Origin: Nitrospirota bacterium
GTDB taxonomy: Bacteria > Nitrospirota > Thermodesulfovibrionia > UBA6902
NCBI GenBank assembly: GCA_016207885.1
Contig: JACQZE010000003.1
Coordinates: 421,117 to 485,116 of the forward strand
Length of the DNA: 64,000 nt
Reading direction: 5' to 3'
In this document: positions 24,151-53,900 of the stretch, in pieces
Position numbering within the stretch: the first letter of the stretch is position 1
Layout of the letters: every line of letters begins with the position of its first letter
The notes under the pieces: generated by a model
Databases searched by the model: none
Seen by the model: the letters and a program-made list of their open reading frames with translations, nothing else
What the model was told of the DNA's origin: nothing
Position numbers and translations under genes: made by a program

Positions 24151-24168
24151 AAAATATTAAACTAAAAC

Positions 24169-24187: not shown

Positions 24188-24209
24188 ATTAAATCCAAAG
24201 GAGGAAAAA

Positions 24210-32365: not shown

Positions 32366-32461
32366 GTGTTATGTTGGTGCAGATTCTTGGCATAGGTTTT
32401 TAGTATCTCCTGAATGATACTCGTTCCCCGATATTATATATAGATAAGCAGAAAGTTAGAA

Positions 32462-32544: not shown

Positions 32545-33668
32545 TATTTAAACAACTGCAAGTAGGCAGCGAACACATACATCTTGCCCCGCTTGCCGCC
32601 GGTGATTTCTTTAAGAATACCGAACTTTTCCAGATCAACGATCAGTTTGTACGCCGATGCCGGTGATATTTTCGTTACCTCGCCTACTTTGGCGGCATCA
32701 ATCATCGGGTGTTGATACAAGTAATTGAGAATCTTCTGTGCGTTTGCCGTTCTGCTGCCCAGTGATTGTATCTGGTTATCCACCTGCTTTTGCAGCTTGA
32801 GGATGTTGTCAAAAGTGGAAATGCTGCTTTTAGCGGTTTCGATAATTCCCACCAGAAAAAACTTGAACCATTGCAGCAGGTCGTTCTTCTCTCTCACCCG
32901 CATCAGGTTATCGTAATAATGCGTGCGGTTGCGCTCGAAGAAATCCGACAAGTACAATACGGGCTGCTTCAATATTCCCTTGCTTACAAGATACAAGGTA
33001 ATCATCAACCGCCCCACGCGGCCATTGCCGTCGAGGAAAGGATGAATGGTTTCAAACTGGTAATGCACCAGTGCAATTTTTAACAGTTCCGGGAAATACC
33101 GGGTATCGTTATGAACAAACTGCTCAATATCACCCATCAACTCGCCGATAGAGGTATGCACCGGCGGCACAAAAACAGCATCGTCAATGGTTGCCCCGCC
33201 TATCCAGTTCTGGCTTCGCCTGAATTCACCCGGCTGTTTATGTTTGCCGCGCACGCCCTTCATCAAGGTCTTATGTGTCTCCATAACCAGGCGAGAGGAA
33301 AAGGGAAGTTTCTGCAACTTCGCAATCGCCCCGTTCATGGCCGCTACATAGTTCTGCACCTCTTCCCAGTCGTCCCTTTTATCCGGGGCAACGTCCTCCC
33401 TTTCCAGAAGTGCCTCCTCCATATTCGTCTGCGTACCTTCGATCTTGCTGGATTGAGTGGCTTCTTTCAGCACATGCATTCTGATGAAGAGGTCAATATT
33501 GGGGATGTAGTCCGAATACATATCCAGCCGGCCCAATTCACGATCCGCCTGTCCAAGCAGCTGAATCAACTCCATGTTGTCCAGCACCCAGGCCCGGTTG
33601 ATAAAGTTGGGCTGAAAGCTCTTGTAATGCCCTTGCTGCACATAACGGCCAGACTGAAACTTTTTCAT
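32544..33668 (-). CDS. Fic-family protein (AMPylase-type fold)
   Basis: Fic motif HPFLDGNGRVGRLM. 374 aa. Confidence 0.8.
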   Translation of the reverse strand: MKKFQSGRYVQQGHYKSFQPNFINRAWVLDNMELIQLLGQADRELGRLDMYSDYIPNIDLFIRMHVLKEATQSSKIEGTQTNMEEALLEREDVAPDKRDDWEEVQNYVAAMNGAIAKLQKLPFSSRLVMETHKTLMKGVRGKHKQPGEFRRSQNWIGGATIDDAVFVPPVHTSIGELMGDIEQFVHNDTRYFPELLKIALVHYQFETIHPFLDGNGRVGRLMITLYLVSKGILKQPVLYLSDFFERNRTHYYDNLMRVREKNDLLQWFKFFLVGIIETAKSSISTFDNILKLQKQVDNQIQSLGSRTANAQKILNYLYQHPMIDAAKVGEVTKISPASAYKLIVDLEKFGILKEITGGKRGKMYVFAAYLQLFK

Positions 33669-38195: not shown

Positions 38196-39262
38196 GCATA
38201 CTGCGCAGATATTTTTTAAAAGAGTTCTTCAAGTTCTTCCTGATATTCATATTAACCATTACCGCTATACTTGTTATCGCGGAGTTCTTTGACAAGGCCG
38301 ATGAATTCTATGCAAACAAAAGCCCTGTCTATCTCACATTCCAGTATCTCATATACAACTGCCCCAAATTCATTCTCTACGCATCGCCTATGGCGTCGCT
38401 TTTCTCCATACTCATTACGATCGGCATAGCTTCAAACCTGAGAGAGACTGTGGCGATCAAGGCGGGCGGGGGAAGCCTCAGAAAACTCTTCTCATCTTTC
38501 CTTGTGCTCGGCGCTGTCATAAGCGTCTTTACATTTATTGTCGGAGAGACGGTCGTGCCGGCTGCAACAAGAAAGGCGTCCTATGTCAGAAGCGTAAAAA
38601 TATTAAAAAAATCGCAGATAGTCACCTTCAGAGAAGAGGCGCTCTGGCTCAAAGGTCTGGATGGAAGCCTCATCCGCGTAAGGGACTTTGTCCAGGACAG
38701 CGACAAGATACTCCAGACGAGCATATTCAGCTTTGATCCGTCCTTTAAACTTCAGAAGAGGATCGAATCAGAAGAGGCTGAGTGGTCAGACGGGGCGTGG
38801 AAGCTGAAAAATTCAACCGTATTTGACCTTGATACCCAGGTAAGAGAGAAGCATGATTCCCTCGTCTCAAACGCCATGGACGAGCCCAAGATATTCAAGG
38901 AAGAGGTGAAGAAGCCTGATGAGATGAACTTCATCGAACTTCGCGATTATTACAACAGGCTGGAGAACGCGGGCTTCAAGAACCTCAAATACAAGGTCCA
39001 GCTATATGAAAAGCTGGCGTATCCCACGATTAATTTTGTCATGATAGTCTTTGGAGTAGCACTTGCGCTGAACACAAGATGGGGCGGAGGCGTCAGGGCT
39101 GCAGGGCTCGGCATCGTCGTGACCATCCTCTACTGGCTCGCCTACACAGTAAGCATCTCCCTCGGCAACACAGGAGCGATCGTCCCGTGGATAGCGCCAT
39201 GGATAGGCCCTGTAATATTCGGCGTTTCAGGGAGTTTGATGTATGTGAATATTAAGGAGTAG
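38192..39262 (+). CDS. lptG: LPS export ABC permease LptG
   Basis: MSILRRYFLKEFFKFFLIFILTITAILVIAEF and ...RETVAIKAGGGSL. Confidence 0.75.
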   Translation: MSILRRYFLKEFFKFFLIFILTITAILVIAEFFDKADEFYANKSPVYLTFQYLIYNCPKFILYASPMASLFSILITIGIASNLRETVAIKAGGGSLRKLFSSFLVLGAVISVFTFIVGETVVPAATRKASYVRSVKILKKSQIVTFREEALWLKGLDGSLIRVRDFVQDSDKILQTSIFSFDPSFKLQKRIESEEAEWSDGAWKLKNSTVFDLDTQVREKHDSLVSNAMDEPKIFKEEVKKPDEMNFIELRDYYNRLENAGFKNLKYKVQLYEKLAYPTINFVMIVFGVALALNTRWGGGVRAAGLGIVVTILYWLAYTVSISLGNTGAIVPWIAPWIGPVIFGVSGSLMYVNIKE

Positions 39263-39300
39263 GTTTGGATGCTCATTTTCGGTCGGTGTTAAACCGGTTG

Positions 39301-39573
39301 TTATCCTCTTTTTGCAATCAAATCACCTTCAATGTAACGATGGATTATTCCTGAAATAAGCGTTTGATAAGGCATACCCATTTCCATTGCTTTCTTCTGA
39401 ATGCCTTGATAGTCGTGGTCATAAAGACGTATGGTAATTCGCTTGTCTTTTATTATTGTCTTTCTTGCCGTAGCCTTAATAGCTGCAATTTCTTTTTTAG
39501 ATGGAGTGGAAAGTTTCATCTTCCCCTTCTCGTATGCCTCAACAATTGCTTTTTCTTCCTTGTCATATTTCAT
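39301..39573 (-). CDS. brnA: BrnA-family antitoxin (RHH)
   Basis: 90 aa with ...RITIRLYDHDYQGIQKKAMEMGMPYQTLISGIIHRYIEG. It lies downstream of, and 4 nt from, the toxin ORF. Confidence 0.7.
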   Translation of the reverse strand: MKYDKEEKAIVEAYEKGKMKLSTPSKKEIAAIKATARKTIIKDKRITIRLYDHDYQGIQKKAMEMGMPYQTLISGIIHRYIEGDLIAKRG

Positions 39574-39576
39574 TTG

Positions 39577-39855
39577 TTACACCTCCTTTTCATCTCTATA
39601 TATCTTGGTTGCTTTCCTACTTGGAATAATTGTTTTCAGGAAAATATAGTCTTTTTCAACAACGTGAGGAACAAGATAAATATAGTTGTCTACAACGACA
39701 AAGTATATTCTTTGTCCGGGGTAGCTGTCCTGGTCGGGATGGCCTGCAACTTTCCATACATCACCCCGCGCCAAATGGAAAACTATCTTCTCAAACGAAA
39801 TATTCCTTTCTCTTTTTAGCCACTCGTTCTTTTGCGGCTCCCATTCGTATTTCAC
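39577..39855 (-). CDS. brnT: BrnT-family toxin (DUF497 RNase)
   Basis: MKYEWEPQKNEWLKRERNISFEKIVFHLARGD ... IIPSRKATKIYRD has a BrnT-like N-terminus. Confidence 0.65.
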   Translation of the reverse strand: MKYEWEPQKNEWLKRERNISFEKIVFHLARGDVWKVAGHPDQDSYPGQRIYFVVVDNYIYLVPHVVEKDYIFLKTIIPSRKATKIYRDEKEV

Positions 39856-39863
39856 AATTTAAT

Positions 39864-39884
39864 TGTACATCATATGTCTGTACA
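39864..39884. promoter_or_regulatory. tandem TGTACA palindromes upstream of brnT (candidate BrnA operator)
   Basis: TGTACAtcatatgtcTGTACA within the brnTA promoter region. Confidence 0.3.
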
Positions 39885-39980
39885 GTTCAAGTTTGGATTG
39901 TGACAGTTTGTGACCCCATAAAGAGTCTAATATATATAATAATCATTGACACCCTGCCTTAATAGTTATATATAAATATC

Positions 39981-40820
39981 ATGGTCTACAAAAATATACT
40001 CGCGGCAGTGAATGAATTTTCAAACTCTGAGATAGCGGCGCGGTACGCGATCACACTTGCGAAGTCATCAGAGGCGAAGCTCTTCCTCGTCTTTATTGCA
40101 GATGAGAAGATCGAGAAGGAGAGGCTGCGGCATGCCGAGACTGCGCTTGAACGGCTCTTTATCGAGGCTGAAGAGACCGGCGTTGAGGTTGAGAGCATCA
40201 TCAAGAGCGGGGAACCAGCGGAGCAGATACTTGAGATCGTTAATGAACATGATATAGACATCGTCTTCACAGCCACAAGGAGGCAGGATGCAAAAGCGCG
40301 TTTCTTTGTGAAGACGCTCTCAAGGCAGCTCATGATAAAACTTCCATGCGCTGTTGCGATGGTGAGGGTTGTAAAGATGGGCGGCACGCATCTGAAGAAC
40401 ATTCTCGTGCCTCTGAGGGGCAGAACACCGGGGCTTAAAGAAAAGGCATACTTTGCCGCAAAGCTTGCCGAAGGCATGGGCTCAGGTGTAACTCTGCTGC
40501 ATACCCGCAAACCGGCTACGAAATTCTTTCACGGCGAGGTGCGCCTGAAACCGGTGCAGAGGGATGTTCAGATCCCGGAGGATATTAAAGAATTTTCAGA
40601 ATATCTGCATAAACATAACATCCCTGTTGAGAAGAAGATAGAATACGGCGGGGTTGCGAGAAGCATAACGGTAGAAGCAGCCTTCAGGAAGAATGACCTG
40701 ATCGTAATGGGGGCGAGTGAAAAGAGCCTGCTGAGTTCTATTGCAAGGGATAATCCTGTTGAACATGTTCTGCGGGAGACGCCTTGCAACCTGATAATAT
40801 TCAGAGGAAGAAAAAGCTGA
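39981..40820 (+). CDS. universal stress protein, tandem UspA domains
   Basis: 279 aa with two Usp-like halves (ILAAVNEF...LFLVFI...; ILVPLRG...LIVMGAS). Confidence 0.7.
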   Translation: MVYKNILAAVNEFSNSEIAARYAITLAKSSEAKLFLVFIADEKIEKERLRHAETALERLFIEAEETGVEVESIIKSGEPAEQILEIVNEHDIDIVFTATRRQDAKARFFVKTLSRQLMIKLPCAVAMVRVVKMGGTHLKNILVPLRGRTPGLKEKAYFAAKLAEGMGSGVTLLHTRKPATKFFHGEVRLKPVQRDVQIPEDIKEFSEYLHKHNIPVEKKIEYGGVARSITVEAAFRKNDLIVMGASEKSLLSSIARDNPVEHVLRETPCNLIIFRGRKS

Positions 40821-40829
40821 CGGCTGATC

Positions 40830-43568
40830 ATGCACATACACAACCTCTCAACAGATGCCGCGCTCAAGAGCCTTCTCACTTCTTCTAAAGGGCTCTCCGA
40901 AGCCGAGGCGTTAAAAAGGCTTAAGGAATACGGATCGAATGAGATAAAGGAAGTAAGGAGAACTCCGCTCTATAAAAAGTTCATTTCGCAGTTCACGCAT
41001 TTTCTTGCCATCCTCCTCTGGATCGCTGCCGTGCTCTGCTTCTTCTCAGAATTCATGCATCCGGGCGAAGGATTGCTCTCACTCGGCATAGCGATAACAG
41101 TGGTAATAATTATCAACGCGGTCTTTACATTCATACAGGAATACCGTGCGGAAAAGGCTGTGGAGGAGCTGAAGAAGCTCCTGCCGTTCAGGGTAAAGGT
41201 ATTGAGAGACGGCGCGGTAAAAGAGATAGAGTCCGGCAATGTGGTTCCCGGAGATATGATGCTCCTCAGCGAGGGCGACAAGGTGCCTGCGGACGCGAGG
41301 ATAATTGAATCAAACCGCCTGACGGTAAATAACGCGCCTCTCACAGGCGAATCTGATTCAAAGCAGAGAAGGCCTGACGAATCTATTGGCGAGTTTTTTG
41401 AGAGCCCGAATATCGTATTTGCCGGAACACTTGTTGTAAGCGGCAGCGGAAGGGCTGTGGCGTTCGCAACAGGCATGTCCACTGAGTTCGGCAAGATAGC
41501 CCATCTCACCGGCGGGGTACAGGAGTTACTGAGCCCTCTTCAGAAAGAGATCACCAGAGTAACAAAGATCGTAGCGGTCATCGCGATGATCACAGGGATA
41601 TCTTTTTTCACTCTGGGATTTTTTGTTGGAAAGGGGTTTTGGCAGAATTTCCTATTTGCTATCGGCATTATTATCGCGAATGTGCCTGAAGGCCTTTTGC
41701 CGACTGTCACGCTATCACTTGCAATGGGAAGCCAGAGAATGGCAAAGAAGAAGGCGTTGATAAAGACGCTCAATTCTGTTGAGACGCTCGGCTCTGTCAC
41801 AGTCATCTGCACTGACAAGACAGGCACGCTCACACAGAACAAGATGGAGGTTCAGAAGATTTGGAGATTGGAAAGGCAGGGGTTAGAAGATAGACAGCCC
41901 CTCTTTGGAAAAGAGGGGGAAGGGGAGATTTTAAAAAAAGATAATTCCTTCAGCATGCTTATGACAACCGCATCCTTCTGCAACAATGCTGAATTTGACG
42001 GGGAGAGATACAAAGGCGATCCAACAGAGGTTGCGATCCTTAAAGCCGCGAGAAAGGCTATCGGCGATCTTCATTCTGAAAGGGTTTACGAGATACCTTT
42101 TGATTCAGAGAGAAAGAGGATGACGACGGTAAATAAGACAGTTGTTTCTACCAAGGGCGCCATGGAGACTGTCTTTCCGCTATGCAATGCAATTCTTATA
42201 AACGGCAAAGCTGAGGCGATGAGCGAGGATAATAAAAAGACGATCACTCAGGCTTATCATTCAATGATGGATGAAGGATTAAGAGTTATCGCATTCGCGT
42301 ATAAGGAAATAGAAAATCCCCCCATCCCCCCTTTGACAAAGCCAACAGTAGGTGCCTTAAACAGGGGCGAGGGGGGATTAGCAGACTCATCACTTGAAAA
42401 AGACCTGATCTTCGCAGGCCTTATGGGGCTTCAAGACCCGCCACGATTGGAAGTGCCGGAAGCGATAAGAAAATGTAAGGCAGCAGGCATTAAGGTCATC
42501 ATGATAACAGGCGATGCGGGCAGGACAGCGGCTGCGATAGGAAGGCAGATCGGGCTTATAAAAAATGAACCGGTACTTATTGAAGGGCATGAGATGAACG
42601 CCATGACTGATAATGCGTTAAGAGAGAAGCTTTCATCAGAAGAGATCATCTTCGCGCGCATGACTCCTCTTCATAAGATGAGGATAGTCTCTGTTCTGCA
42701 GGATGAGGGCGAGCGTGTTGCCGTGACCGGCGACGGGGTCAATGACGCGCCCGCGCTGAAGAAGGCGAACATCGGCATTGCGATGGGAATCACGGGAACA
42801 GATGTCGCAAGAGAGGCTTCTGACATGATCCTTCTTGACGATAATTTCGCCTCGATCGTCAACGCGGTAGAAGAGGGAAGAAGCATTTTTTCTAATATCA
42901 GAAAATTCATCAGCTACATATTTGCATCCAACATACCTGAGGCTGTTCCGTATATCGGATATATAATTTTCAATATCCCTCTTCCTCTTACGATCATGCA
43001 GATACTTGTTATCGACCTTGGGACAGACCTGTTTCCCGCTCTTGCGCTTGGCGCCGAGAGGCCGACAAAAGATGTTATGAGCCAGCCTCCGAGAAGCCCG
43101 GAAGAGAGGCTCCTGAACTTCAACACGCTCGGCAGGGCATATTTATTCCTCGGCCCTATTGAGGCGCTCGCAGGCATATTCGGATTCTTCTATGTGCTCA
43201 ATGCCGGAGGATGGCAGTGGGGAACGATGCTCCCTGCGAATAATCTGCTTTATATGCAGGCAACAACAGCATGCCTTGCCGGAATTATCATCTCACAGAT
43301 AGGCAATGTCTTTGCGTGCCGATCATCTAAAGAATCCGTATTCAGCATCGGGGTCTTCTCTAACAGACTCATCATGTTCGGTATAATGTTAGAGATAATT
43401 CTTTCGGCATTTATCATCTACAATCCTATTGCAAATAAAATCTTCGGGACAGCGCCTCCCGGACAAAAGATATTGCTGGCCCTTATTCCTTTCGGCATCG
43501 GCCTGTTTTTAGCAGAGGAATTGAGGAAATTTTATGTCAGGAGGCTGGATAGAAAACATCATAATTGA
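40830..43568 (+). CDS. P-type cation-transporting ATPase (E1-E2, type II-like)
   Basis: ICTDKTGTLTQNKM (phosphorylation site), TGDGVNDAPALKKANIGIAMG and about 10 TM helices. 912 aa, with two in-frame repeat insertions. Confidence 0.85.
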   Translation: MHIHNLSTDAALKSLLTSSKGLSEAEALKRLKEYGSNEIKEVRRTPLYKKFISQFTHFLAILLWIAAVLCFFSEFMHPGEGLLSLGIAITVVIIINAVFTFIQEYRAEKAVEELKKLLPFRVKVLRDGAVKEIESGNVVPGDMMLLSEGDKVPADARIIESNRLTVNNAPLTGESDSKQRRPDESIGEFFESPNIVFAGTLVVSGSGRAVAFATGMSTEFGKIAHLTGGVQELLSPLQKEITRVTKIVAVIAMITGISFFTLGFFVGKGFWQNFLFAIGIIIANVPEGLLPTVTLSLAMGSQRMAKKKALIKTLNSVETLGSVTVICTDKTGTLTQNKMEVQKIWRLERQGLEDRQPLFGKEGEGEILKKDNSFSMLMTTASFCNNAEFDGERYKGDPTEVAILKAARKAIGDLHSERVYEIPFDSERKRMTTVNKTVVSTKGAMETVFPLCNAILINGKAEAMSEDNKKTITQAYHSMMDEGLRVIAFAYKEIENPPIPPLTKPTVGALNRGEGGLADSSLEKDLIFAGLMGLQDPPRLEVPEAIRKCKAAGIKVIMITGDAGRTAAAIGRQIGLIKNEPVLIEGHEMNAMTDNALREKLSSEEIIFARMTPLHKMRIVSVLQDEGERVAVTGDGVNDAPALKKANIGIAMGITGTDVAREASDMILLDDNFASIVNAVEEGRSIFSNIRKFISYIFASNIPEAVPYIGYIIFNIPLPLTIMQILVIDLGTDLFPALALGAERPTKDVMSQPPRSPEERLLNFNTLGRAYLFLGPIEALAGIFGFFYVLNAGGWQWGTMLPANNLLYMQATTACLAGIIISQIGNVFACRSSKESVFSIGVFSNRLIMFGIMLEIILSAFIIYNPIANKIFGTAPPGQKILLALIPFGIGLFLAEELRKFYVRRLDRKHHN
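41893..41932. repeat. palindromic element copy inserted in-frame in the P-type ATPase
   Basis: gacagCCCCTCTTtggaAAAGAGGGGGaaGGGGagatttt is translated as RQPLFGKEGEGEIL. It is nearly identical to the 3' half of the copy at 10746. Confidence 0.75.
42314..42383. repeat. palindromic element (long type with aagccaacagtagg core) inserted in-frame in the P-type ATPase
   Basis: aaaatCCCCCCatCCCCCCtttgacaaagccaacagtaggtgccttaaacaGGGGcgaGGGGGGattagc is translated as ENPPIPPLTKPTVGALNRGEGGLAD. It shares the core with the intergenic copy at 24001. Confidence 0.75.
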
Positions 43569-43593
43569 GATATTCACAGTCGTCAGTTAAGTA

Positions 43594-43622
43594 TTGACAA
43601 TTAATTTCGACAGGAGTAAATT
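43594..43622 (+). promoter_or_regulatory. sigma-70-like promoter for the riboswitch-kimA transcript
   Basis: TTGACA, a 17-nt spacer, then TAAATT. Confidence 0.45.
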
Positions 43623-43633
43623 AAAGTCACATA

Positions 43634-43762
43634 GCAGCCGAGGTTCTCTCAAAGAGAGGACGCGGGGGAACCAGTTTTTTGGGGCGTATTCCAGCAATGG
43701 ATAGGGCACTTCCAGGCCCGAGCCCGTCAGCTAACCTCGCAGGCATTTGGAAGGGCAATAGC
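43634..43762 (+). ncRNA. c-di-AMP riboswitch (ydaO/kimA class)
   Basis: ...cgcGGGGGAACCagtttttTGGGGcgtaTTCCagcaatggaTAGGGcacttccaggCCCGAGCCCGTCAGCTAACCTCGCAGGCatttggaaggg closely parallels the Thermoanaerobacter ydaO aptamer (GGAGGAACC...UUGGGGUUAAUC...CCCGCACCCGACAGCUAACUCCGGAGGC). Confidence 0.8.
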
Positions 43763-43763
43763 G

Positions 43764-43797
43764 AGAAAAACTAAACCGCTGCCCGGCGGTTTTTTTA
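43764..43797 (+). terminator. riboswitch expression-platform intrinsic terminator
   Basis: AAACCGCtgcccgGCGGTTTTTTTA. Confidence 0.7.
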
Positions 43798-43825
43798 TTT
43801 CCCCTTTTAGCCCTAAGGAGGAAAG

Positions 43826-45637
43826 ATGTCCATCAAGAATTTTCTCATCGGCAGTCCGATCGAGACCATCCGGGAAAAGCACGAACGTCTCAATAAAAAA
43901 ATGGGGCTCGCGGTATTCTCATCAGACCCGCTCTCGTCAGTAGCTTACGGAACTGAAGAGATCCTCTTTGCCCTCGTGGTCGGAGGCGCCGCCTTCATGA
44001 ACTATCTGATGCCCATAGCTGTCGCGATCGTCATCCTTGTTGCGATAGTGGCGACCTCATATTACCAGACCATCCACGCATATTCTTCCGGCGGCGGGGC
44101 GTATATCGTCGCGAAAGAAAATCTCGGGGATTATCCCGGCCTTGTCGCAGGAGCGGCGCTTCTTATCGATTATGTGCTTACGGTCACGGTCAGTGTTTCA
44201 GCAGGCATCGCTGCCATTACCTCTGCCTTTCCCGGAACGCGGGAATATACCGTTCTTTTCTGTCTCATGGCCATACTGTTTATCACAATGGTCAACCTGA
44301 GAGGGGTGAGAGAATCTGGCAAGGTATTTTCGTTTCCGGTCTATCTTTTTGTCGGAAGCCTGCTGCTTCTCATCGGGACGAGTTTTTGGAAATCATCTTC
44401 CCTGCCGCATCTTCCGTATAAAGACCTGAAGGATACGACATCAAGCATATTCCCCATCTTTATCATATTGAAGGCATTTGCCTCAGGGTGTGCTACGCTC
44501 ACCGGGATCGAAGCTGTATCAAACGGGGTGCGCGCATTCAAGGAACCGGAAGCGAAGAACGCCGGCATCACTCTTATATGGATGGCGGTTATCCTCGGCA
44601 TCCTCACAATAGGCATTGCATATTACGCGAACTATTTCGCTATCATGCCCAATGCGGATGAGACGGTCCTTTCCCAGCTTTCAAGAACGATATTTTCCAA
44701 GGGAATTATCTATTACACTATCCAGTTCGCCACAGCCCTGATCCTCATACTTGCAGCAAATACATCGTACGCTGACTTCCCAAGATTGTCTTCCATCATG
44801 GCAAATGACCGTTATCTGCCGAGGCAGTTGAGCAACCGCGGGGACAAGCTTGTATTCTCAAACGGCATCCTCATACTCGGTCTTCTTTCCGCCCTGCTGC
44901 TTGTGCTCTTCAGGGGCGACACCCACTCGCTTATCCCATTATATGCCGTAGGCGTCTTCACGGCCTTCACCTTATCACAGATCGGCATGGTCAGGCACTG
45001 GATGAAGGACAAGGGAAAGGGCTGGCTCAAAAGCGCCTTTATCAACGGCCTGGGCGGCCTTGTCACCGGCGTGGTACTGATAATAATAGCGGTAGAAAAA
45101 TTCTCACACGGCGCGTGGATGGTGCTCATAGCCATCCCGGTTCTGGTTTATCTGACGCAAAAGGTGCATGAGCATTATCTTTCCGTTGCCGGCCAGCTCT
45201 CTCTTGAAAAAGTTGAGCCTGCGAAGGAATATACTCACCATTCGGTGATCATACCTGTGTCAGGCCTTCAGACAGCTGTGTTGAACGCGATCAAGTACGC
45301 AAAGGCGCTTTCAGACGATGTGGCTGCGGTCTATGTCTGCCTCGATAACGTAGAGATGGAGCAGATGCAGGCGAAATGGAAGAGTTACGGAATGGGTGTC
45401 CCGCTTCTTATCCTGCACTCCCCCTACCGTTCGATCATTGAGCCGCTCATGGATTATATAGACGGAGTACGCGAGCAATATGAAGACGGCGTTATCACGG
45501 TCGTGCTGCCGGAGTTCGTGCCTCAGAAGTGGTGGCATCATCTCCTGCATAATCAAACAGCATTGTTCATCAAAGGTATGATCCTGTTCAAGAAAGGAGT
45601 TGTGTCCACAAGCGTGCCGCTGCATCTGAAGAGCTGA
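43826..45637 (+). CDS. kimA: KimA-like (APC-superfamily) high-affinity K+ importer
   Basis: 603 aa, 12 TM segments plus a cytoplasmic C-domain. The N-terminus is ...PLSSVAYGTEEIL... It lies directly downstream of the c-di-AMP riboswitch. RBS AAGGAGGA. Confidence 0.65.
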   Translation: MSIKNFLIGSPIETIREKHERLNKKMGLAVFSSDPLSSVAYGTEEILFALVVGGAAFMNYLMPIAVAIVILVAIVATSYYQTIHAYSSGGGAYIVAKENLGDYPGLVAGAALLIDYVLTVTVSVSAGIAAITSAFPGTREYTVLFCLMAILFITMVNLRGVRESGKVFSFPVYLFVGSLLLLIGTSFWKSSSLPHLPYKDLKDTTSSIFPIFIILKAFASGCATLTGIEAVSNGVRAFKEPEAKNAGITLIWMAVILGILTIGIAYYANYFAIMPNADETVLSQLSRTIFSKGIIYYTIQFATALILILAANTSYADFPRLSSIMANDRYLPRQLSNRGDKLVFSNGILILGLLSALLLVLFRGDTHSLIPLYAVGVFTAFTLSQIGMVRHWMKDKGKGWLKSAFINGLGGLVTGVVLIIIAVEKFSHGAWMVLIAIPVLVYLTQKVHEHYLSVAGQLSLEKVEPAKEYTHHSVIIPVSGLQTAVLNAIKYAKALSDDVAAVYVCLDNVEMEQMQAKWKSYGMGVPLLILHSPYRSIIEPLMDYIDGVREQYEDGVITVVLPEFVPQKWWHHLLHNQTALFIKGMILFKKGVVSTSVPLHLKS

Positions 45638-45724
45638 TCTCATTTGAATGCTCATGCAATGACTGCAAAACAAAAAGGGCCGGCAGGATAATCTGCCGGC
45701 CCCGGAAATAACAATATTGAAAAC

Positions 45725-46732
45725 TTAATTGATCGTAATTCCCCAGGGTGATCCGGCGTAAGAGCTGTCAGTCGCGGGCGCGAGCTTGATCGTCCCGACA
45801 ACTGTATTGTTTGTCGTATCAATGACCGATACTGAAACATCTCCGTGGTTTACGACATAAGCCCTGCTGCCTTCAGAATCCACCGCAACTCCTCTCGGCG
45901 CCTTGCCAACCTTGATCTCAGCCACAACCTTATCGCTGCCGGTATCAATAACAGTTACCGTGCCTTCTTCTCTTGTGACATATGCCCTGCCCTTTGCAGC
46001 GTCAACCCCAATGTACCAGGCGGTATCGCCGACCTTGATAAGGCCCTTGTCCTCCATCTTATCCGCGTCTATTACCATGACCGACCCTTTGCCGTGAATG
46101 GCTACAAAAACCTTCTTCTTCACATTATCAACAGCAAGGCCGAGCGGAGTATCAACGGTCTTTATCTTCTTGCTTACTTTATTAGTTGCAGTGTCAACGA
46201 CTGCAATCTCCCAATCAGTTGAGTTGCTGGCAAATACCTTGCCGTTTAATATATCCACATCAAAAGGGCCTACACCTACATCAATAGTACCTGTAACCTT
46301 ATTGGTCTTGAGGTCTATTATAGAGATGGTATGGCTGGCGTTCTTCCCGTCCACATAATTCTCGGTATCAGCTGCATACCCTATCCCGGCAGCTGTATCA
46401 AGCGCTATCGCCATCGGGCCTACACCAACTTTCACATTACCTACAACCGAATTGCTCTTAAGATCAACTACTGATACGCTGCTGTCGCCTGTGTTGGAAT
46501 TAACTACATACGCCTTGCCTGAAGCAGCATCCACTTCAATGCCCGCAGGCCAGGTACCGACTCTTATTGTGTTTATGACCTCATTTTTTGCGGGATCAAT
46601 GACCGATACTGTATTGTTGCCTGAGTTTGTGACATAGACAAGCTTGCCTGCCCCATTGGCCCAGACAGGGATGGCAAATACTGCAACTGCAATAATTGAA
46701 GCTAAGAATTTCCAAAAACTTTTCGATCTCAT
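45725..46732 (-). CDS. secreted YVTN-family beta-propeller repeat protein
   Basis: Signal peptide followed by repeated ...YVTNSGNNTVSVID.../...YVVNHGDVSVSVID... about 40-aa units. Confidence 0.7.
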   Translation of the reverse strand: MRSKSFWKFLASIIAVAVFAIPVWANGAGKLVYVTNSGNNTVSVIDPAKNEVINTIRVGTWPAGIEVDAASGKAYVVNSNTGDSSVSVVDLKSNSVVGNVKVGVGPMAIALDTAAGIGYAADTENYVDGKNASHTISIIDLKTNKVTGTIDVGVGPFDVDILNGKVFASNSTDWEIAVVDTATNKVSKKIKTVDTPLGLAVDNVKKKVFVAIHGKGSVMVIDADKMEDKGLIKVGDTAWYIGVDAAKGRAYVTREEGTVTVIDTGSDKVVAEIKVGKAPRGVAVDSEGSRAYVVNHGDVSVSVIDTTNNTVVGTIKLAPATDSSYAGSPWGITIN

Positions 46733-46793
46733 TTTCTCTCCTTTAAATTTGTTTATATTATTTCATACTGTTAAACAGCATCTTTAAACAATT

Positions 46794-47804
46794 CTAATCA
46801 ACAGCAACATCCCACGGCGAACCCGCATACGGGCTGCCCGGGGTAAGGCTCAGTTTTATAGTCTTAACGAGGACATTGTTTTCCGTGTCTATGACTGAAA
46901 CGCTGACGTCTTTGTGGTTCGTAACATAGGCCCGGTTATTTGCAGAATCAACAGCAATGCCAAGCGGGTCATTGCCGACCCTTATAGAGCCCGTGACCTT
47001 GTTTAAAGAGGCATCAATTATACTGACAGTATTAGCTGATCTGTTAGGGACATATAATCTGTTATGCACGGTATCAACCCCTATATACCACGGGTTCTTG
47101 CCGACTTTTATACTGGCAACAACCTTGTTGTTTTCAGGATCTATGGCTGAGATGCTGTTGCTGTTATGATTGGCTACATATACTCTGTCGCTTACAGAGC
47201 TGTATGCTGCGCCGAGAGGCACATTGCCGACAGGTATTGTTGCCATGACTGAATTCTTCTTCAGGTCAATTACAGAAACGCTGTCCTCGCCGGAATTAAC
47301 CACAAACAGCTTGTTCCTTCCGGGGTCGAGCGCCAACCCGAAAGGCTCTTTGCCGGCCTTTATATTGCCTGTTGAAGTATTATTGCCAAGATCCACAATC
47401 GATATTGTGTTGTTGCTGTTATCCGTATTGGTGACATAGGCCTTTTTTGACGCGGTGTCCAATGCAATGTGCATCGGGCCTGTCCCGACTTTTATCTTTC
47501 CGATAATAGAGTTGCTCTTAAGGTCTATTACCGCGACATTATTGTCAGAAGGGCCGGAGTTGACAATATAGGCCTTACGGGATTCATGGTCGATCGCGAT
47601 GCCTGACGGCCATACACCGACCCTGATCGTATTTACAACCTCTGCCTTTGAAGCATCAATGACCGATACGGTATTATTGCCCGCATTGGTAACATAGACC
47701 ATTTTTGCCGGAGCGGTGCTCTTGGCTATCGCAAAAAAAGGCGCTGCCATCATTAAAAACAGAAAAAAAGAAAATAAAAAGATCTTAATATTCCTTAAAA
47801 TCAT
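46794..47804 (-). CDS. secreted YVTN-family beta-propeller repeat protein (tandem paralog)
   Basis: Same repeat architecture. 336 aa. Confidence 0.7.
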   Translation of the reverse strand: MILRNIKIFLFSFFLFLMMAAPFFAIAKSTAPAKMVYVTNAGNNTVSVIDASKAEVVNTIRVGVWPSGIAIDHESRKAYIVNSGPSDNNVAVIDLKSNSIIGKIKVGTGPMHIALDTASKKAYVTNTDNSNNTISIVDLGNNTSTGNIKAGKEPFGLALDPGRNKLFVVNSGEDSVSVIDLKKNSVMATIPVGNVPLGAAYSSVSDRVYVANHNSNSISAIDPENNKVVASIKVGKNPWYIGVDTVHNRLYVPNRSANTVSIIDASLNKVTGSIRVGNDPLGIAVDSANNRAYVTNHKDVSVSVIDTENNVLVKTIKLSLTPGSPYAGSPWDVAVD

Positions 47805-47880
47805 TTCCCCTCCTGTTTTTTAAAAAATTAATAAGATACCGAGTTTATTTATATAGTTTTATGGCTTGACTTGTCAAGCG

Positions 47881-48744
47881 TTATGCATGCTGCCTTATAT
47901 ATTCAGCAACCTTTCTTTTATACTCCTGATGAATGGCCTTTGTTACTTTGCCCGGGCCGCTGCTTATCTTTATCTTGTCCACCATTGAAACAGGCATTAC
48001 CTCCATCGTTGTGTTTGATATAAAGACTTCACCGGCACAATAGATATGGGACGGCCTGAACTTTCCCTCGCGAACCTTTATACCAAGCTCTTCCGCAATT
48101 CCGATAATGGCCGTGCGCGTAATGCCGTTAAGGATGCCGACACTGATTTCAGGTGTGTAAAGTGTTCCGTTCTTTACAAAGAAGATGTTGCTTATCGTTC
48201 CCTCGGCAATATAGCCGCTGTAATTCAGCATCACCGCCTCATACGCGCCTCTCTCTTTCCCCTCTATCTTTGCGAGTATGTTGTTCAGAAAGTTAAGCGA
48301 CTTGATCGCAGGGTCAATAGACTTGTTGAAGTTCCGCCGGGTATTCACTATCGCAATATTGACGCCGCTCTTATAATAAGCAGAGAGGTATCCCTGAAAT
48401 GGATTCGCAATAATTACGAAGGTGGGTTTCGGACAGAGCTCCGGATCCAGCCCGATAGGCCCCCTGCCCCTTGATACTGTTATTCTTATATAGGCGTCAG
48501 ACAGCCTGTTCGCCTTAACGGTCTTGTTTACAGCCCTGATTATCGCTTCAGGAGTTTTGGATATATCTAATCTGATAAGAGCTGCGGAATTAAAGAGCCT
48601 TCCGATATGTTCTTCGATCTTAAAGGCCACACCATTATACGCCCTGAGAGTTTCATAAATGCCGTCGCCGTAGAGAAACCCGTGGTCAAAGACAGAGACA
48701 ACCGCCTTACTGTCGGGAACAAGCCTGTTATTCAGGTAGATCAT
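47881..48744 (-). CDS. ilvE: class IV aminotransferase (branched-chain / D-amino-acid aminotransferase family)
   Basis: FDHGFLYGDGIYETLRAYNG and ...EVFISNTTMEVMPV are class IV signatures. 287 aa. Confidence 0.65.
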   Translation of the reverse strand: MIYLNNRLVPDSKAVVSVFDHGFLYGDGIYETLRAYNGVAFKIEEHIGRLFNSAALIRLDISKTPEAIIRAVNKTVKANRLSDAYIRITVSRGRGPIGLDPELCPKPTFVIIANPFQGYLSAYYKSGVNIAIVNTRRNFNKSIDPAIKSLNFLNNILAKIEGKERGAYEAVMLNYSGYIAEGTISNIFFVKNGTLYTPEISVGILNGITRTAIIGIAEELGIKVREGKFRPSHIYCAGEVFISNTTMEVMPVSMVDKIKISSGPGKVTKAIHQEYKRKVAEYIRQHA

Positions 48745-48754
48745 ATGTTCCTGT

Positions 48755-49756
48755 TTACGTTCCGATCAGCTGTTCAAGTTCCTTAAGCTGTTTCTTTTCA
48801 CCCATGGCAATCAGCGTGTCACCTGTCTTTATAATGCTTGATGATGTGGGGTTGAACTCCATCTCTCCGGTCTCTCTCTTTATCGCCACAATGATGACCC
48901 TCAATGCCTTGCGCAGCCCGCATTCATCAAGCGTCCTGCCGGTAAAGTTTGATTCCTTCTTCACCTTTACCTCTTCTATCTGAAGCTCAAGGTTTCCGCT
49001 TCGTGTTGCAAACTCTAAAAAGTCTACAACTGACGGCTTGAGAAGCGTGTGCGCTATCCTGAGCCCGCCGATCTGATAAGGCGAGATGACGTTGTCAGCC
49101 CCTGCCCTGAGAAGTTTCTTGTCAGACCCTTCCTCGCCTGCCCTTGCAACTATCCTGAGTTTAGGGTTCAGGCCTCTGGCGGAAAGGACAACATACAGGT
49201 TGTCGGCATCTGACGGCAGCACCGATATCAGCCCCCTTGCCCTCTCAATACCAGCCTCCTTAAGGTCCGCATCCTGTGTCGCATCCCCTTTCAGCATGAG
49301 CACGCCGGGGCTTGCAAGCGCAGGGTTTTCGACTGAATTCTCAATCACTACAAATGGCGCCCCGTGCTGGAGCATCTCCTTGCAGATGATCTTTCCCATC
49401 CTCCCGTGTCCGCAGATAATATAGTGGTCTTTTATGCTCTGAATTTTCTTGTCCAATTTGCTCCTCCCGAAAACCTCTCTGATTTCTCCTTCAAAGATCA
49501 ACCTGGCGCCGACGCCAAGCGCGTAGAGCATCGCTCCCACGCCAAACATTATAAGAATGATGGTAAAAGACCTGCCTGCCTGTGAAAGCGGGTGGATCTC
49601 CCCGTACCCTACAGTTGTCAGGGTTATGATCGTCATGTAAAGGGAATCGAACAGATTCCATCCCTCTACAAAAAAATAGCCTGCTGTGCCAAACGATATA
49701 ACCCCGGCAATGACTAATATCGGGCTTATTATCCTTTCCCTTACATTCATGGTCAT
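48755..49756 (-). CDS. MthK-like K+ channel with RCK (TrkA-N/TrkA-C) gating ring
   Basis: Two TM helices with selectivity filter TTVGYGE, then a Rossmann motif (IICGHGRMGK) and a TrkA-C-like C-terminus. Confidence 0.8.
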   Translation of the reverse strand: MTMNVRERIISPILVIAGVISFGTAGYFFVEGWNLFDSLYMTIITLTTVGYGEIHPLSQAGRSFTIILIMFGVGAMLYALGVGARLIFEGEIREVFGRSKLDKKIQSIKDHYIICGHGRMGKIICKEMLQHGAPFVVIENSVENPALASPGVLMLKGDATQDADLKEAGIERARGLISVLPSDADNLYVVLSARGLNPKLRIVARAGEEGSDKKLLRAGADNVISPYQIGGLRIAHTLLKPSVVDFLEFATRSGNLELQIEEVKVKKESNFTGRTLDECGLRKALRVIIVAIKRETGEMEFNPTSSSIIKTGDTLIAMGEKKQLKELEQLIGT

Positions 49757-49789
49757 TAATTATAAAGAATTACAAATAGTTTTTTCGGT

Positions 49790-50713
49790 TTATTTTCTCT
49801 CAACAATAGCAAAACCAGGCATCACCGCGTTACAGACCAAATCTTCCAGCTGGCTATAATCATATTTCAATTGCGCCGCCCTTAAGCAAGCATAATATAT
49901 GTTTTTTTCTTCTTGCATGATCACCGCAGGCGCGATACTTTTTTTCAAAAGCATAGCTGTTAAAATCAACCTCCCGATGCGGCCATTGCCATCGGAAAAT
50001 GGATGTATCTGCTCAAATCTTGCGTGGATATTTGAAACATGCGCAATATTATCCTTTTGCCCTCTGCTTATGTCCTCGATAATACCCTGCATTAACGCCG
50101 GAACTTTGATATAGTTTGCCGTAGGCACATTAGAACCGACAATGCGCACGCCATGCCTGCGATAAAAACCGGCATCATCTTTGATCCCATTCATCAAAAT
50201 ACTATGCAATTTTAATATTAAATCTTCGTTGATTTTATTTTTGCCTTCAAGATACCCAAAAAGATATTGCAAAGCTGTTTGATGATTTTTAACCTCAAGC
50301 TGTTCGATCAGGCTTTTATCGGGTATTGATCTGTTATTGAAAATAATATCAGCCGTTTCATCTTCCGATAAGGTTGAACCCTCTATCTTGTTGGAATTAT
50401 ATGTAAGAGAAAGTAAAAACTGATCATAAATATCTGGGTTTTTTAAAATTATATTCAGGATATTCCGATTCTCATCGGATTTTTTTGCGATCAACTCTTT
50501 TTTTGCCGCCAAAACAGTTTCGGGTATTATTGTCTGCCCGGTATATGCTTTATATAACGCATCAATTGCATCTTCCTGTTTTTTTCTCGGTTTAGCTTTC
50601 TCATTCCACCAATTATTAAGCGCGACAAAAGAGACGCCGATTTTGGCGGCCATTTCAGTCTGCGTCAGTCCTGATATCTTCTGAATGATCTTAAGCTTCT
50701 CTTTGGTATTCAT
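49790..50713 (-). CDS. HTH(XRE)-Fic fusion protein
   Basis: N-terminal HTH (GLTQTEMAAKIGVSFVALNNW). Fic motif HPFSDGNGRIGRLIL. Confidence 0.75.
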   Translation of the reverse strand: MNTKEKLKIIQKISGLTQTEMAAKIGVSFVALNNWWNEKAKPRKKQEDAIDALYKAYTGQTIIPETVLAAKKELIAKKSDENRNILNIILKNPDIYDQFLLSLTYNSNKIEGSTLSEDETADIIFNNRSIPDKSLIEQLEVKNHQTALQYLFGYLEGKNKINEDLILKLHSILMNGIKDDAGFYRRHGVRIVGSNVPTANYIKVPALMQGIIEDISRGQKDNIAHVSNIHARFEQIHPFSDGNGRIGRLILTAMLLKKSIAPAVIMQEEKNIYYACLRAAQLKYDYSQLEDLVCNAVMPGFAIVERK

Positions 50714-50727
50714 AAAGCCATATTATC

Positions 50728-50774
50728 AAACTTTATAAAGTTTGTCTATATTTATGGATTTTATAAAGTTTCAC
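50728..50774. promoter_or_regulatory. perfect 16-bp palindrome AAACTTTATAAAGTTT plus half-site repeat upstream of HTH-Fic (candidate auto-operator)
   Basis: AAACTTTATAAAGTTT (50728-50743), and TTTTATAAAGTTTCAC at 50759-50774. Confidence 0.45.
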
Positions 50775-50863
50775 TATTTACAAAATCAATTTTTGATAGC
50801 AAGTCGCGGAGAATTGAATGGGAGTGAGAAATTATGCCCCAATAATTATATTGCAGAAAATAA

Positions 50864-50912
50864 AAGAGGGATGAGCCTGTTTGTATTGCACATGCAGGCT
50901 CATCCCTCTTGA
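50864..50912 (-). terminator. rpoC terminator hairpin
   Basis: AAGAGGGATGAGCCTG tttgtattgcacatg CAGGCTCATCCCTCTT lies immediately 3' of rpoC. Confidence 0.55.
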
Positions 50913-50916
50913 AAAT

Positions 50917-53900
50917 TTATTCTTGTTCTTCAGTGCTGATAAAAGTATCCCTGTATCTCGGCATGCCCGTGCCGGCAGGAATAAGCCTTCCCATGATCAC
51001 ATTCTCTTTAAGCCCTCTCAGTTCATCGGTCGCGCCGCCTATTGCCGCTTCTGTGAGCACCCTTGTGGTCTCCTGGAAAGAGGCTGCGGAGATAAAGCTG
51101 TATGTGCTCAAAGATGCCTTGGTGATACCAAGAAGTATAGGCTTCGCCTTTGCAGGCTGCCCCTTCTGCTTCAGGGCCTTCAGGTTCTCGGCCTCAAAGT
51201 CCGCCTTGTCAACCTGCTCGCCTTCGAGAAATCCTGTATCGCCTGAATCCTCGATCTTCACCTTCTTCATCATCTGCCTGGCAATGACTTCTATGTGCTT
51301 GTCGTTAATGGAGACGCCCTGAAGCCTGTAGACCTTCTGCACCTCTCCGACAAGATAACGCTGAAGCTCTTTGGGCCCGAGGATCTCCAATATGCTGTGC
51401 GGGTTCACAGAGCCGTCCATGAGCGGTTCGCCGGCCTTCACAAACTCGCCTTCGTTGACACTCAGGTGTTTACCCTTTGGTATGTTGTACTCCCTCGTAT
51501 CCGTGCCGCCTCTTACGTTTACTACTCTCATACCCTTGTGAAAGCCCTTGAATTCCACGATACCGTCGATCTCGCTGACGACAGCATGCTCTTTCGGCTT
51601 CCTTGCCTCAAAGAGTTCTGCAACACGCGGAAGTCCTCCGGTGATGTCCTTTGTCTTTGAGGTCTCTCTCGGGATCTTGGCTATTATGTCGCCGGGATGA
51701 ACGATATCACCCCTGTCAACAAGAAGATGAGAACCAAGTGAAAGCAGGTACCGCGCAATATTGTTCGTGCCCGGGATCTTTTGTGTGGCCCTTCCCTGTT
51801 CGTCCTTAATGGAAAGCCTCGGCCTTCTGTCAGGCGGGTACTCGATGACAACTTTATGCGAAAGCCCTGTAACTTCATCAACCTCTTCCTTGACCGTTAC
51901 GCCTTCTATGATATCTCCAAGCGCTATCTTGCCGCCGACCTGCGTGACGATCGGTATTGAGTACGGATCCCATTCCACGAGCAGGTCTCCCGCGTTTATC
52001 TTCTCATTGTCCTTGACCTTTATCTTTGCTCCATAAACTACGGAATATTTCTCCTTCTCTCTTCCTTTTGAATCCACGATCGCGATGCTTCCATTGCGGG
52101 TAAGCGCGACAAGAGAACCTTCCCTGTCCTTGACCGTTGAGAGGTCAATGAACTGGACTGATCCGTTATTCTTGGCCTTAAGCACACTCTGCTCGACCAT
52201 CCTTGTTGCGGTACCGCCGATATGGAAGGTTCTCATCGTAAGCTGTGTTCCGGGCTCACCTATGGACTGCGCGGCCACGATTCCAACTGCTGCGCCTATC
52301 TCTACAGGCTCGCCTTTCCCAAGATCCCTGCCGTAACACTGCCTGCAGACACCGTGTTTTGACTCACATGTAAGAACAGACCTGATCTTGACGTTGCTTA
52401 TGCCCGCCCCGACTATATCCTGTGAAAGCTGGCTGTTTATCTCAACGCCTCTCTTTGCGATCACCTTCCCGGTTATCGGGTCCTTGACCTCTTCCGCTGA
52501 TACTCTTCCGAATATCCTCTCTTCAAGCGGTTCAATGATCTCGCCGCTCTCTACGAGGCTTGCGACCTCGATCCCGTCACGGGTGCCGCAGTCATCTTCT
52601 GAAATTACAACATCCTGGGTGACATCAACCAGCCTTCTTGTCAGGTAACCTGAGTTAGCTGTCTTTAATGCCGTGTCTGCAAGTCCCTTTCTCGCGCCGT
52701 GTGTCGAGATGAAATATTGAAGCGGCGCCAGCCCTTCCCTGAAGTTAGCGGTTATCGGGGTCTCGATGATCTCACCCGAAGGCTTGGCCATAAGTCCTCT
52801 CATTCCTGCCAGCTGCCTTATCTGTGCGGCAGAGCCCCTTGCGCCGGAATCCGCCATCATGAAGATATTATTAAATGAACGGAGCTCTTTAAGTTCGTCG
52901 TCAGTAAGCTTTTCAACATGCTTTACGCCTTCAGCTCCCAGTTCCTTCATCATCGCCTCGGCGACCTTCTCTGTGACCTGCGCCCATATGTCCACAACCT
53001 TGTTATACCGCTCGCCGTTTGTGATAAGGCCGTCAGAATACTGGTTTTCCACATCAAGGACCTCATGTTCCGCCTTCTTTATGAACTCGGTCTTCTGGTG
53101 CGGGATATGCATGTCATCTATGCAGATCGAGGAGCCTGACCTGGTCGCGTATTTGAACCCTATCTTCTCGATATTATCAAGGAAAGCGACCGTCTCTTTT
53201 CTTCCAACCCTCTTGTAATAATAGCTGATGAGCTTTCCGACCTCTTTCTTGGTCATTACCTTGTTCACCATCTCATATGGTATCGCATCAATTACTATCT
53301 CATTAAGGATGATACGGCCGACTGTAGTGTCGACAAAAGAACCGTTCATCCTCACCTTGACAGCCGCATGCTCGCTCACTACTCCCGCGTCATAAGCAAT
53401 CCTCACTTCTTCAGGGCCGTAGAAGACCTTGCCTTCCCCTTTTGCCCCTGTCTTCTTCTTTGTGAGGTAATAAATACCAAGTACCATGTCCTGAGAAGGT
53501 ATCGTTATCGGCTCGCCGTTGGAAGGGTTGAGTATATTGTTAACAGACATCATAAGCACCCTTGCCTCTATCTGCGCCTCTATGGAAAGAGGAATATGTA
53601 TAGCCATCTGGTCGCCGTCAAAGTCAGCGTTAAATGCCGTACATACGAGCGGGTGAAGTTTTATGGCCTTGCCCTCTACAAGCACAGGGTCAAATGCCTG
53701 AATACCGAGCCTGTGAAGCGTCGGCGCCCTGTTAAGAAGGACCGGATGCTCCCTGATGACCTCGTCAAGACAGTCCCAGATGGCCTCATCTCCCCTCTCA
53801 ACCATCTTCTTTGCGGCCTTTATCGTAGTGACGTATCCCTTCTCTTCAAGCTTGCTGAATACAAAAGGGGTGAAGAGCTCAAGCGCCATGCTCTTTGGAA

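Follow-up and report, generated by a model that had tools for sequence, protein, structure and literature searches.

Does a bacterium of the phylum Nitrospirota control its uptake of potassium through a riboswitch for cyclic di-adenosine monophosphate (c-di-AMP), in the manner described for Bacillus subtilis? This question is raised by a 64,000-nucleotide stretch of DNA from a Nitrospirota metagenome-assembled genome (MAG), which we refer to in its entirety as the window. In a sequence-only reading of the window, positions 39981-49756 had been described as a potassium-homeostasis neighbourhood in which a c-di-AMP riboswitch with a terminator precedes a 603-aa KimA-like transporter, with a P-type ATPase, a tandem universal stress protein (Usp) and an RCK-gated channel close by. 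Our analysis indicates that the segment 43594-45637 is probably a self-contained, c-di-AMP-repressed K+-uptake gene governed by a standard terminating OFF switch, and we place the probability of this reading at about 0.85.

The riboswitch aptamer

An Rfam scan of the whole window detected, as its one riboswitch match, a c-di-AMP riboswitch aptamer (RF00379, ydaO/yuaA class) on the plus strand at 43626-43760. The match covered model positions 1-134 of 134 and scored 92.1 bits (E 2.4e-20) against a gathering score of 38. The covariance-model search that had been proposed in the sequence-only reading thus bears out its assignment, and the aptamer and terminator together, at 43626-43799, lie within a few bases of the interval given there (43634-43797).

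The Rfam helices of the window aptamer were mapped onto an alignment of 24 distinct related aptamers, which had been gathered using a search pattern that fixes the 3' core (GGAAG). Standard pairs were found in 97.7% of the cells, compared to 30-54% when the 3' partners were slid by 1-3 columns. Changes on both sides of a pair, that is, compensatory changes, were seen at 14 pairs, and the observed values were reached by none of 500 shuffles. This covariation sits in the hairpin helices; the long-range helices were invariant, in part because the search pattern had fixed their 3' strand. Two further segments, the loop CUUCCA (43709-43714) and the 3' tail UGGAAG (43748-43753), are complementary in sequence and form the two strands of a predicted pseudoknot. 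They were paired in 100% of the cells and were almost invariant, with no covariation, for which the pattern fixing GGAAG is partly responsible. Published structures of ydaO-class riboswitches contain such a pseudoknot between a loop and the 3' tail. The compensatory changes, spread across many lineages, indicate purifying selection on the fold. The element at 43626-43760 is a ydaO-class aptamer in both identity and structure, and homology suggests that its ligand would be c-di-AMP.

All aptamers of the Nitrospirota type share small departures from the Rfam consensus. They carry GGGGCGUAU (positions 43681-43691 in the window) in place of GGGGUGAAU, and CCCGAGCCCG in place of CCCGAACCCG, and these lineage-wide substitutions fall in two pseudo-symmetric segments of the core.

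The gene under probable riboswitch control

The open reading frame (ORF) that follows the aptamer (43826-45637, plus strand, 603 aa) was compared with proteins of known structure. Its match to B. subtilis KimA (PDB 6S3K, 8B70 and 8B71) had an E value of 1.7e-162 at 45% identity, and the alignment paired residues 2-602 of the ORF with residues 4-606 of 6S3K, including the C-terminal cytosolic domain. The transporter had earlier been called KimA-like, and the alignment extends that likeness from end to end; judged by it, the product is KimA, the K+/H+ symporter of the KimA subfamily of KUP transporters. Pfam and NCBIfam place the ORF only as a relative of the amino-acid permeases (APC fold), and the public annotation 'APC family permease' could be replaced by KimA. 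The protein is 74-92% identical to many Nitrospirota proteins, the nearest of which are labelled Thermodesulfovibrionia, Thermodesulfovibrionales and Dissulfurispiraceae.

Functional residues were then mapped through the 6S3K alignment, with their roles taken from PMC6994465 and PMC10284832. All residues of the K+ site and gate (D36, Y43, T121, S125, T230 and Y377) are identical in the ORF, where they correspond to D34, Y41, T119, S123, T226 and Y373. The H+-coupling residue E233 (E229 in the ORF) and the trans-inhibition residue D117 are identical as well, and by homology the protein would carry out K+/H+ symport. In the c-di-AMP pocket, six of the seven direct contacts (R337, P479, V506, H579, N580 and Q581) are identical, and the seventh, S582, is a threonine, as it is in Staphylococcus aureus KimA and the lactococcal Kups. 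Residues at the periphery of the site (F565, R587 and W592) differ. Conservation of the pocket suggests that KimA probably binds c-di-AMP directly, and is therefore probably inhibited by it directly.

The expression platform and a model for switching

The sequence around the aptamer contains the remaining parts of a transcriptional control unit. A promoter-like site, found by a consensus scan (10/12 matches), lies on the plus strand at 43594-43622, with a -35 element TTGACA, a 17-nt spacer and a -10 element TAAATT; it ends 3 nt 5' of the aptamer, and its identification is by consensus match only. On the 3' side, a terminator scan found an intrinsic terminator of 8 pairs, AAACCGCU-GCCC-GGCGGUUU followed by a U run, on the plus strand at 43773-43799. 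The hairpin itself, AAACCGCT-GCCC-GGCGGTTT, occupies 43773-43792 and is followed by seven T; it is present in both the minimum free energy (MFE) fold and the centroid fold of the whole leader. The ribosome-binding site AAGGAGG (43815-43821, plus strand) was read from the sequence 4 nt before the ATG at 43826. These elements stand in the correct order, and the order of promoter, aptamer, terminator with T-run and ribosome-binding site is conserved in seven aligned Nitrospirota leaders, in which TTGACA is invariant and a GGAGG-type site occurs at the same place. Among 23 distinct kimA leaders that are related, 22 have a hairpin and U-run, and these keep a constant distance from the aptamer. The L089 kimA leader has the aptamer and lacks the U-run terminator, and may use a different expression platform.

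In B. subtilis, binding of c-di-AMP to the kimA (ydaO) riboswitch leads to transcription termination (PMC5575661; PMC6488665). Taken together with the conserved terminator, this homology makes an OFF switch that would act by transcription termination well supported for the window.

Folding of the isolated expression platform suggested a candidate antiterminator, in which GGGCA (43753-43757) and GCG (43761-43763) would pair with CGCUGCCC (43777-43784, plus strand), a segment that forms the 5' arm and loop of the terminator. The antiterminator helix was calculated at -11.0 kcal/mol and the terminator, with which it shares nucleotides, at -10.8 kcal/mol; in the window, the antiterminator duplex is better than 97% of shuffles. 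The first G of the antiterminator helix, G43753, is also the last G of the pseudoknot strand, which offers a simple route by which a ligand-stabilised pseudoknot could disfavour the antiterminator.

We propose the following sequence of events. A sigma-70-type promoter would start the leader RNA, the first ~135 nt of which would fold as the ydaO-class aptamer. When c-di-AMP is high, as a signal that K+ is sufficient, the ligand would lock the aptamer and the CUUCCA/UGGAAG pseudoknot, the hairpin at 43773-43792 would form with its U-run, and transcription would stop before kimA. When c-di-AMP is low, the tail beside the pseudoknot would be free, so that GGGCA...GCG could pair with the 5' arm and loop of the terminator; RNA polymerase would then read through and the K+/H+ symporter KimA would be made. 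Since the protein is probably also inhibited directly by c-di-AMP, control would be exerted at two levels, as in Bacillus.

Distribution of the riboswitch-importer arrangement

To place the arrangement among its relatives, we drew on a survey of 44 KimA loci, one genome per species, all of which were scanned with Rfam. The riboswitch stood directly upstream of kimA in all seven Nitrospirota loci (one of them cut by a contig end), and in none of the 37 loci from Methylomirabilota, Bdellovibrionota, Chloroflexota, Actinomycetota, Acidobacteriota, Nitrosotalea and one Clostridiaceae MAG. The best KimA locus in the scan of reference genomes encoded a protein 91% identical to the window KimA.

A scan of metagenomes with the 3' core pattern of the lineage returned at least 120 loci. 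Among the matches listed in which the next gene was readable, the gene after the riboswitch core was of the KimA family in at least 42 cases (including distant forms of 657-683 aa) and kup in at least 26; KdpA and a TrkH/KtrB-like protein were each encoded at least once, and a small lytic-transglycosylase-like protein at least twice. The genes that lie downstream in metagenomes are those of the established regulon of the c-di-AMP riboswitch class. Some loci showed unusual arrangements. In L003, from a Nitrospirota genome, the distance from leader to gene is 450 nt. The riboswitch terminator is separated from kimA there by a 90-aa ORF (7738-8010) that has no Pfam match and begins with an N-terminus resembling a signal peptide. 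Two riboswitch cores were found 2.2 kb apart on one strand in L088, and 58 nt apart in L119.

The arrangement had been called a textbook Firmicutes one, here in a genome whose other features look Gram-negative. The arrangement itself is present as described. The implied surprise is overstated, since predicted c-di-AMP riboswitches before K+ transporters have been listed for Cyanobacteria, Proteobacteria, Verrucomicrobia and Fusobacteria (PMC6488665), and since the unit is conserved across Nitrospirota and common in metagenomes. The searchable literature contained nothing on this circuit that linked c-di-AMP or a diadenylate cyclase to Nitrospirae or Thermodesulfovibrio. The unit is thus of a known and well-understood regulatory kind, in a phylum that is little studied and unnamed in the searchable c-di-AMP literature, and while it adds little new biology, it would extend the Firmicutes circuit of c-di-AMP, riboswitch and KimA to uncultured Nitrospirota of the Thermodesulfovibrionia type.

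Evidence for and against c-di-AMP-dependent repression

Several observations weigh against the reading of 43594-45637 as a c-di-AMP-repressed gene. Among 21 relatives, the antiterminator duplex had a mean z of -1.0; it stood at or below 5% in 4 of the 21, and in about a third it was no better than in shuffled sequence. The specific antiterminator helix, GGGCA...GCG / CGC-UGCCC, had seemed convincing for the window and the nearest relatives; it was downgraded after this shuffle control on the wider set, and we put it forward weakly, as a hypothesis. Unconstrained folding of the whole leader gives the terminator without ligand, so that any switching must be kinetic, and the fold of the leader is no more stable than that of shuffled sequence (z -0.56). 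A six-frame motif scan, together with tblastn using a CdaA-like probe, covered the 64-kb window and the first 164 loci retrieved, and identified no diadenylate cyclase in either. Finally, the locus L165, which shares the backbone of the window, has neither riboswitch nor kimA at the position of 43594-45703, so that the unit is dispensable or mobile.

The folding results could mean that the aptamer is real and that the hairpin and U-run are not under the control of the ligand, in which case the leader might act through translation initiation, RNA stability or Rho, or might even be an ON switch. The terminator in the unconstrained MFE fold, the statistically weak antiterminator of the relatives and the absence of any U-run from the L089 leader would all agree with this, as would a short UUUCC...GGAAA complementarity around the ribosome-binding site. 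Against it stands the hairpin with its U-run, which keeps a constant spacing to the aptamer in 22 of 23 relatives. For B. subtilis, riboswitches of this class are described as OFF switches that terminate transcription (PMC5575661), and in all systems studied c-di-AMP represses, and never induces, K+ importers (PMC6488665, PMC5575661). We therefore regard another route of control as quite improbable.

The failure to find a cyclase in the window and the first 164 loci raises a different alternative, namely that the element is a decaying relic or has changed its ligand; a lineage without c-di-AMP synthesis could have acquired the riboswitch from Firmicutes by transfer. The small lineage-wide deviations from the Rfam consensus, such as GGGGCGUAU for GGGGUGAAU, could be taken in the same way. 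Against this stand a score far above threshold, the compensatory changes, which reflect purifying selection on the fold across many lineages, the canonical regulon, and a KimA that has kept its c-di-AMP pocket. The KimA of the window is 45% identical to that of Bacillus, as opposed to 74-92% for many Nitrospirota proteins, and thus shows no sign of recent transfer. Diadenylate cyclases have, moreover, been reported in most bacteria (PMC12448109). We find it extremely improbable that the element is such a relic.

Repression by c-di-AMP remains the reading that we prefer. Selection on the aptamer, the canonical regulon and the c-di-AMP pocket of KimA lend indirect support to the presence of c-di-AMP in this lineage, and the pairing of riboswitch and KimA would imply that the Nitrospirota hosts make c-di-AMP and gate K+ uptake with it.

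The Usp-ATPase pair upstream of the riboswitch

Two genes on the plus strand precede the riboswitch and form a unit with a 9-nt gap between them. The sequence-only reading had named a P-type ATPase and a tandem Usp nearby, and Pfam domains confirm the nature of both. The first encodes the tandem Usp (39981-40820, 279 aa), which matches Pfam Usp (PF00582) in two stretches (E 7.3e-30, 104.8 bits). No solved relative of this protein was found by sequence. The possibility that it is UspE itself was rejected, as it scored 39 bits against a cut-off of 227 for the UspE equivalog. The c-di-AMP motif of the S. aureus KdpD-USP domain is SXS-X20-FTAXY; a match to this motif was also considered and dropped, since of its elements the Usp has FTA alone, at a spacing that differs by one.

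The second gene encodes a type II P-type ATPase (40830-43568, 912 aa) with the Pfam domains Cation_ATPase_N, E1-E2_ATPase and Cation_ATPase_C and the core P-type motifs TGES, DKTGT and GDGVND. Its best PDB matches are the alpha subunits of Na,K-ATPase (2ZXE, 575 bits, E 2.6e-171); the Listeria Ca2+-ATPase LMCA1 scores lower, at 470 bits. The top 36 PDB sequences are all alpha subunits of Na,K- or H,K-ATPases. The motifs NVPEGL in transmembrane segment 4 (TM4), SNIPE in TM5 and IDLGTD in TM6, which we take to belong to ion sites I and II, are identical to those of the shark pump 2ZXE. At what is presumably Na+ site III, QWAD of TM8 is replaced by QIGN and YTLTSN of TM5 by YIFASN. The score against the NCBIfam model TIGR01106 (ATPase-IIC_X-K) was 681 bits, below the cut-off of 946.1, and homologues of the protein bear the JGI label 'sodium/potassium-transporting ATPase subunit alpha'. 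A review of P-type ATPases has no specific account of P2C pumps in prokaryotes. A gene for a beta subunit (single-pass, glycoprotein-like) was found neither in the window nor in L165, L167 or L168.

A tandem Usp lies directly upstream of the ATPase wherever that side of the gene can be read (L002, L003, L080, L125, L127, L137, L165, L167 and L168). The pair immediately precedes riboswitch-kimA in L003, L005, L080 and L127 and lies within 3.5 kb of it in L002; in L125 and L137 it stands beside riboswitch-kup. In L167, a Desulfovibrionales MAG, the next element after the pair is a c-di-AMP riboswitch scoring 86.6 bits, and the permease that comes after this belongs to the KimA family but is only 27% identical to that of the window. 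The pair is also found with neither kimA nor another such importer, in L165 and L168. A permissive Rfam scan of 39200-50950 detected no second riboswitch, including upstream of the Usp-ATPase pair, even at E<=1. The pair is thus a separate unit without a riboswitch of its own, which is often, though not always, beside c-di-AMP-controlled importers. It is widespread in Nitrospirota and, with the Desulfovibrionales MAG, occurs in two phyla.

One tentative and rather doubtful interpretation is that the pair is a bacterial pump for monovalent cations (K+-countertransporting) that has no beta subunit and works together with c-di-AMP-controlled K+ importers, the Usp serving as a nucleotide-sensing regulator. 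Cooperation of pump and importer would explain why the pair recurs beside riboswitch-kimA and riboswitch-kup, even where the importer is only 27% identical. The combination of a Usp with a Na,K-ATPase-like pump is, to our mind, a more useful lead towards something new than the riboswitch-kimA unit.

The MthK-like channel and the backbone of the locus

The channel gene lies on the minus strand at 48755-49756 and encodes a 333-aa, MthK-like RCK-gated K+ channel. The RCK-gated TVGYG channel of the sequence-only reading is recovered here by the Pfam domains (Ion_trans_2, TrkA_N and TrkA_C), by the selectivity filter, which reads TTVGYGE, and by the best solved match, MthK 1LNQ (E 3.7e-36, residues 13-331). 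The gene heads a tightly spaced string on the minus strand, mthK-ilvE-YVTN-YVTN. A strong, GC-rich hairpin of 11 pairs lies between the convergent kimA and YVTN genes, at 45676-45703. On the minus strand it carries a T-run, and it is likely to be the terminator of this string. The sole other Rfam match in 39200-50950 is to L20_leader; at 24.5 bits it stays below the threshold of 58.7, overlaps this hairpin and is probably due to chance.

Comparison with L165, whose ATPase is 85% identical and which is by that measure the closest relative, helps to separate these genes. Both loci have a backbone of P-II, glnE, lptF, lptG, Usp, ATPase, beta-propeller genes, ilvE, mthK and rpoC. When L165 10724-10777 was compared with window 43594-45703, a 425-aa beta-propeller gene stood where the window has riboswitch-kimA. 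In gene order, the window has three extras: a BrnT/BrnA-like pair at 39301-39855, riboswitch-kimA, and an HTH-Fic gene at 49790-50713. The riboswitch-kimA unit is thus a variable cassette within a conserved backbone. The first of the other extras consists of ORFs of 90 and 92 aa on the minus strand, between lptG and Usp, with sub-threshold matches to CopG/BrnA antitoxins and BrnT toxins; the HTH and Fic gene, also on the minus strand, lies between mthK and rpoC. Among the other loci, L165, with which the entire backbone is common, was the one that had mthK near the ATPase; no KimA-anchored locus had it. The closeness of mthK to kimA in the window would appear to reflect shared ancestry of the gene order and no functional link.

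These comparisons bear on whether 39981-49756 is one coordinated island of K+ homeostasis, in which the Usp-ATPase pair, riboswitch-kimA and mthK are functionally coupled and might all respond to c-di-AMP. In other proteins, domains of the RCK_C and USP types serve as c-di-AMP receptors, which we count in favour of such an island, along with the cation ligands of Na,K-ATPase type in the ATPase. The pair does recur next to riboswitch-kimA and riboswitch-kup, and even the Desulfovibrionales MAG keeps the order Usp-ATPase-riboswitch-permease. However, there is one riboswitch only in 39200-50950, the pair occurs without kimA in L165 and L168, and several close kimA loci have no ATPase although their sequence reaches more than 4 kb upstream. 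The Usp does not match the KdpD-USP motif, having FTA only, and mthK belongs to the other strand, with ilvE and two beta-propeller genes, and is near the ATPase in L165 alone. A single island is therefore unlikely. The potassium-homeostasis neighbourhood first described is a functional unit in part only: the Usp-ATPase pair recurs beside riboswitch-controlled importers, and the MthK-like gene lies in a separate minus-strand string that is kept in L165 without kimA.

Other features of the window

Beyond this region, the window encodes LptF, LptG, a nif cluster, amtB, glnA, glnE and rpoBC with a ribosomal-protein cluster. LptF and LptG indicate a diderm host, in line with the Gram-negative appearance remarked upon before. 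The block for nitrogen fixation and assimilation (5770-25622, plus strand) contains nifH, nifD and nifK-like genes, a fused nifEN-like gene for an 894-aa protein, and genes for a radical-SAM protein, ThiF and homocitrate synthase, as well as two amtB genes, a GATase gene and glnA; glnE stands farther along. Two ORFs in this block, at 17177-18667 (496 aa) and 19247-19777 (176 aa), have no Pfam match.

Between glnA and glnE, on the minus strand at 25726-33668, is a probable defence island with a ResIII helicase-type restriction subunit, an N6_N4 DNA methylase, AlbA_2 (Schlafen) and HATPase_c_4 proteins and a Fic protein. The gene for the last of these (Fic_N + Fic, 32544-33668, minus strand) adjoins the restriction-modification cluster. 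In the 469-aa protein encoded at 1508-2917 (minus strand), a 4Fe-4S dicluster domain is fused with a pair of cyclic-nucleotide-binding domains.

Comparison with known systems

The MthK-like channel resembles MthK, the Ca2+-gated K+ channel of Methanothermobacter, in its two-transmembrane pore, its TVGYG filter and its one RCK domain, and aligns with it over the full length. It differs in that identity is low (E 3.7e-36) and in that the window gene is co-oriented with ilvE and beta-propeller genes.

The alpha subunits of eukaryotic Na,K- and H,K-ATPases (P2C) are the highest-scoring solved relatives of the window ATPase and share with it the ligand motifs of TM4, TM5 and TM6 and the core motifs. 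Compared with them, the window ATPase is shorter (912 aa), has no beta gene nearby and has a tandem Usp as its partner; asparagine replaces the TM8 aspartate of Na+ site III, and alanine the TM5 threonine.

Among riboswitches, those found before kdpFABC, ktr, trk and kup, for example at the kdp operon of Bacillus thuringiensis (PMC6488665), belong to the same class and precede genes for K+ uptake, whereas the riboswitch of the window would control kimA only.

The closest known system is the kimA (ydaO) leader of B. subtilis, which shares with the window the RNA family RF00379, a platform with an intrinsic terminator, the KimA fold, the residues for K+ and H+ and most residues of the c-di-AMP pocket. 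The window differs in its host, a diderm Nitrospirota MAG and not a Firmicute, and in a KimA that is 45% identical. Its aptamer has lineage-specific substitutions and short P-stems, and a Usp/P-type ATPase pair stands immediately upstream of its riboswitch-kimA unit. In their expected logic the two systems are alike, in that c-di-AMP would repress K+ uptake at the level of both RNA and protein.

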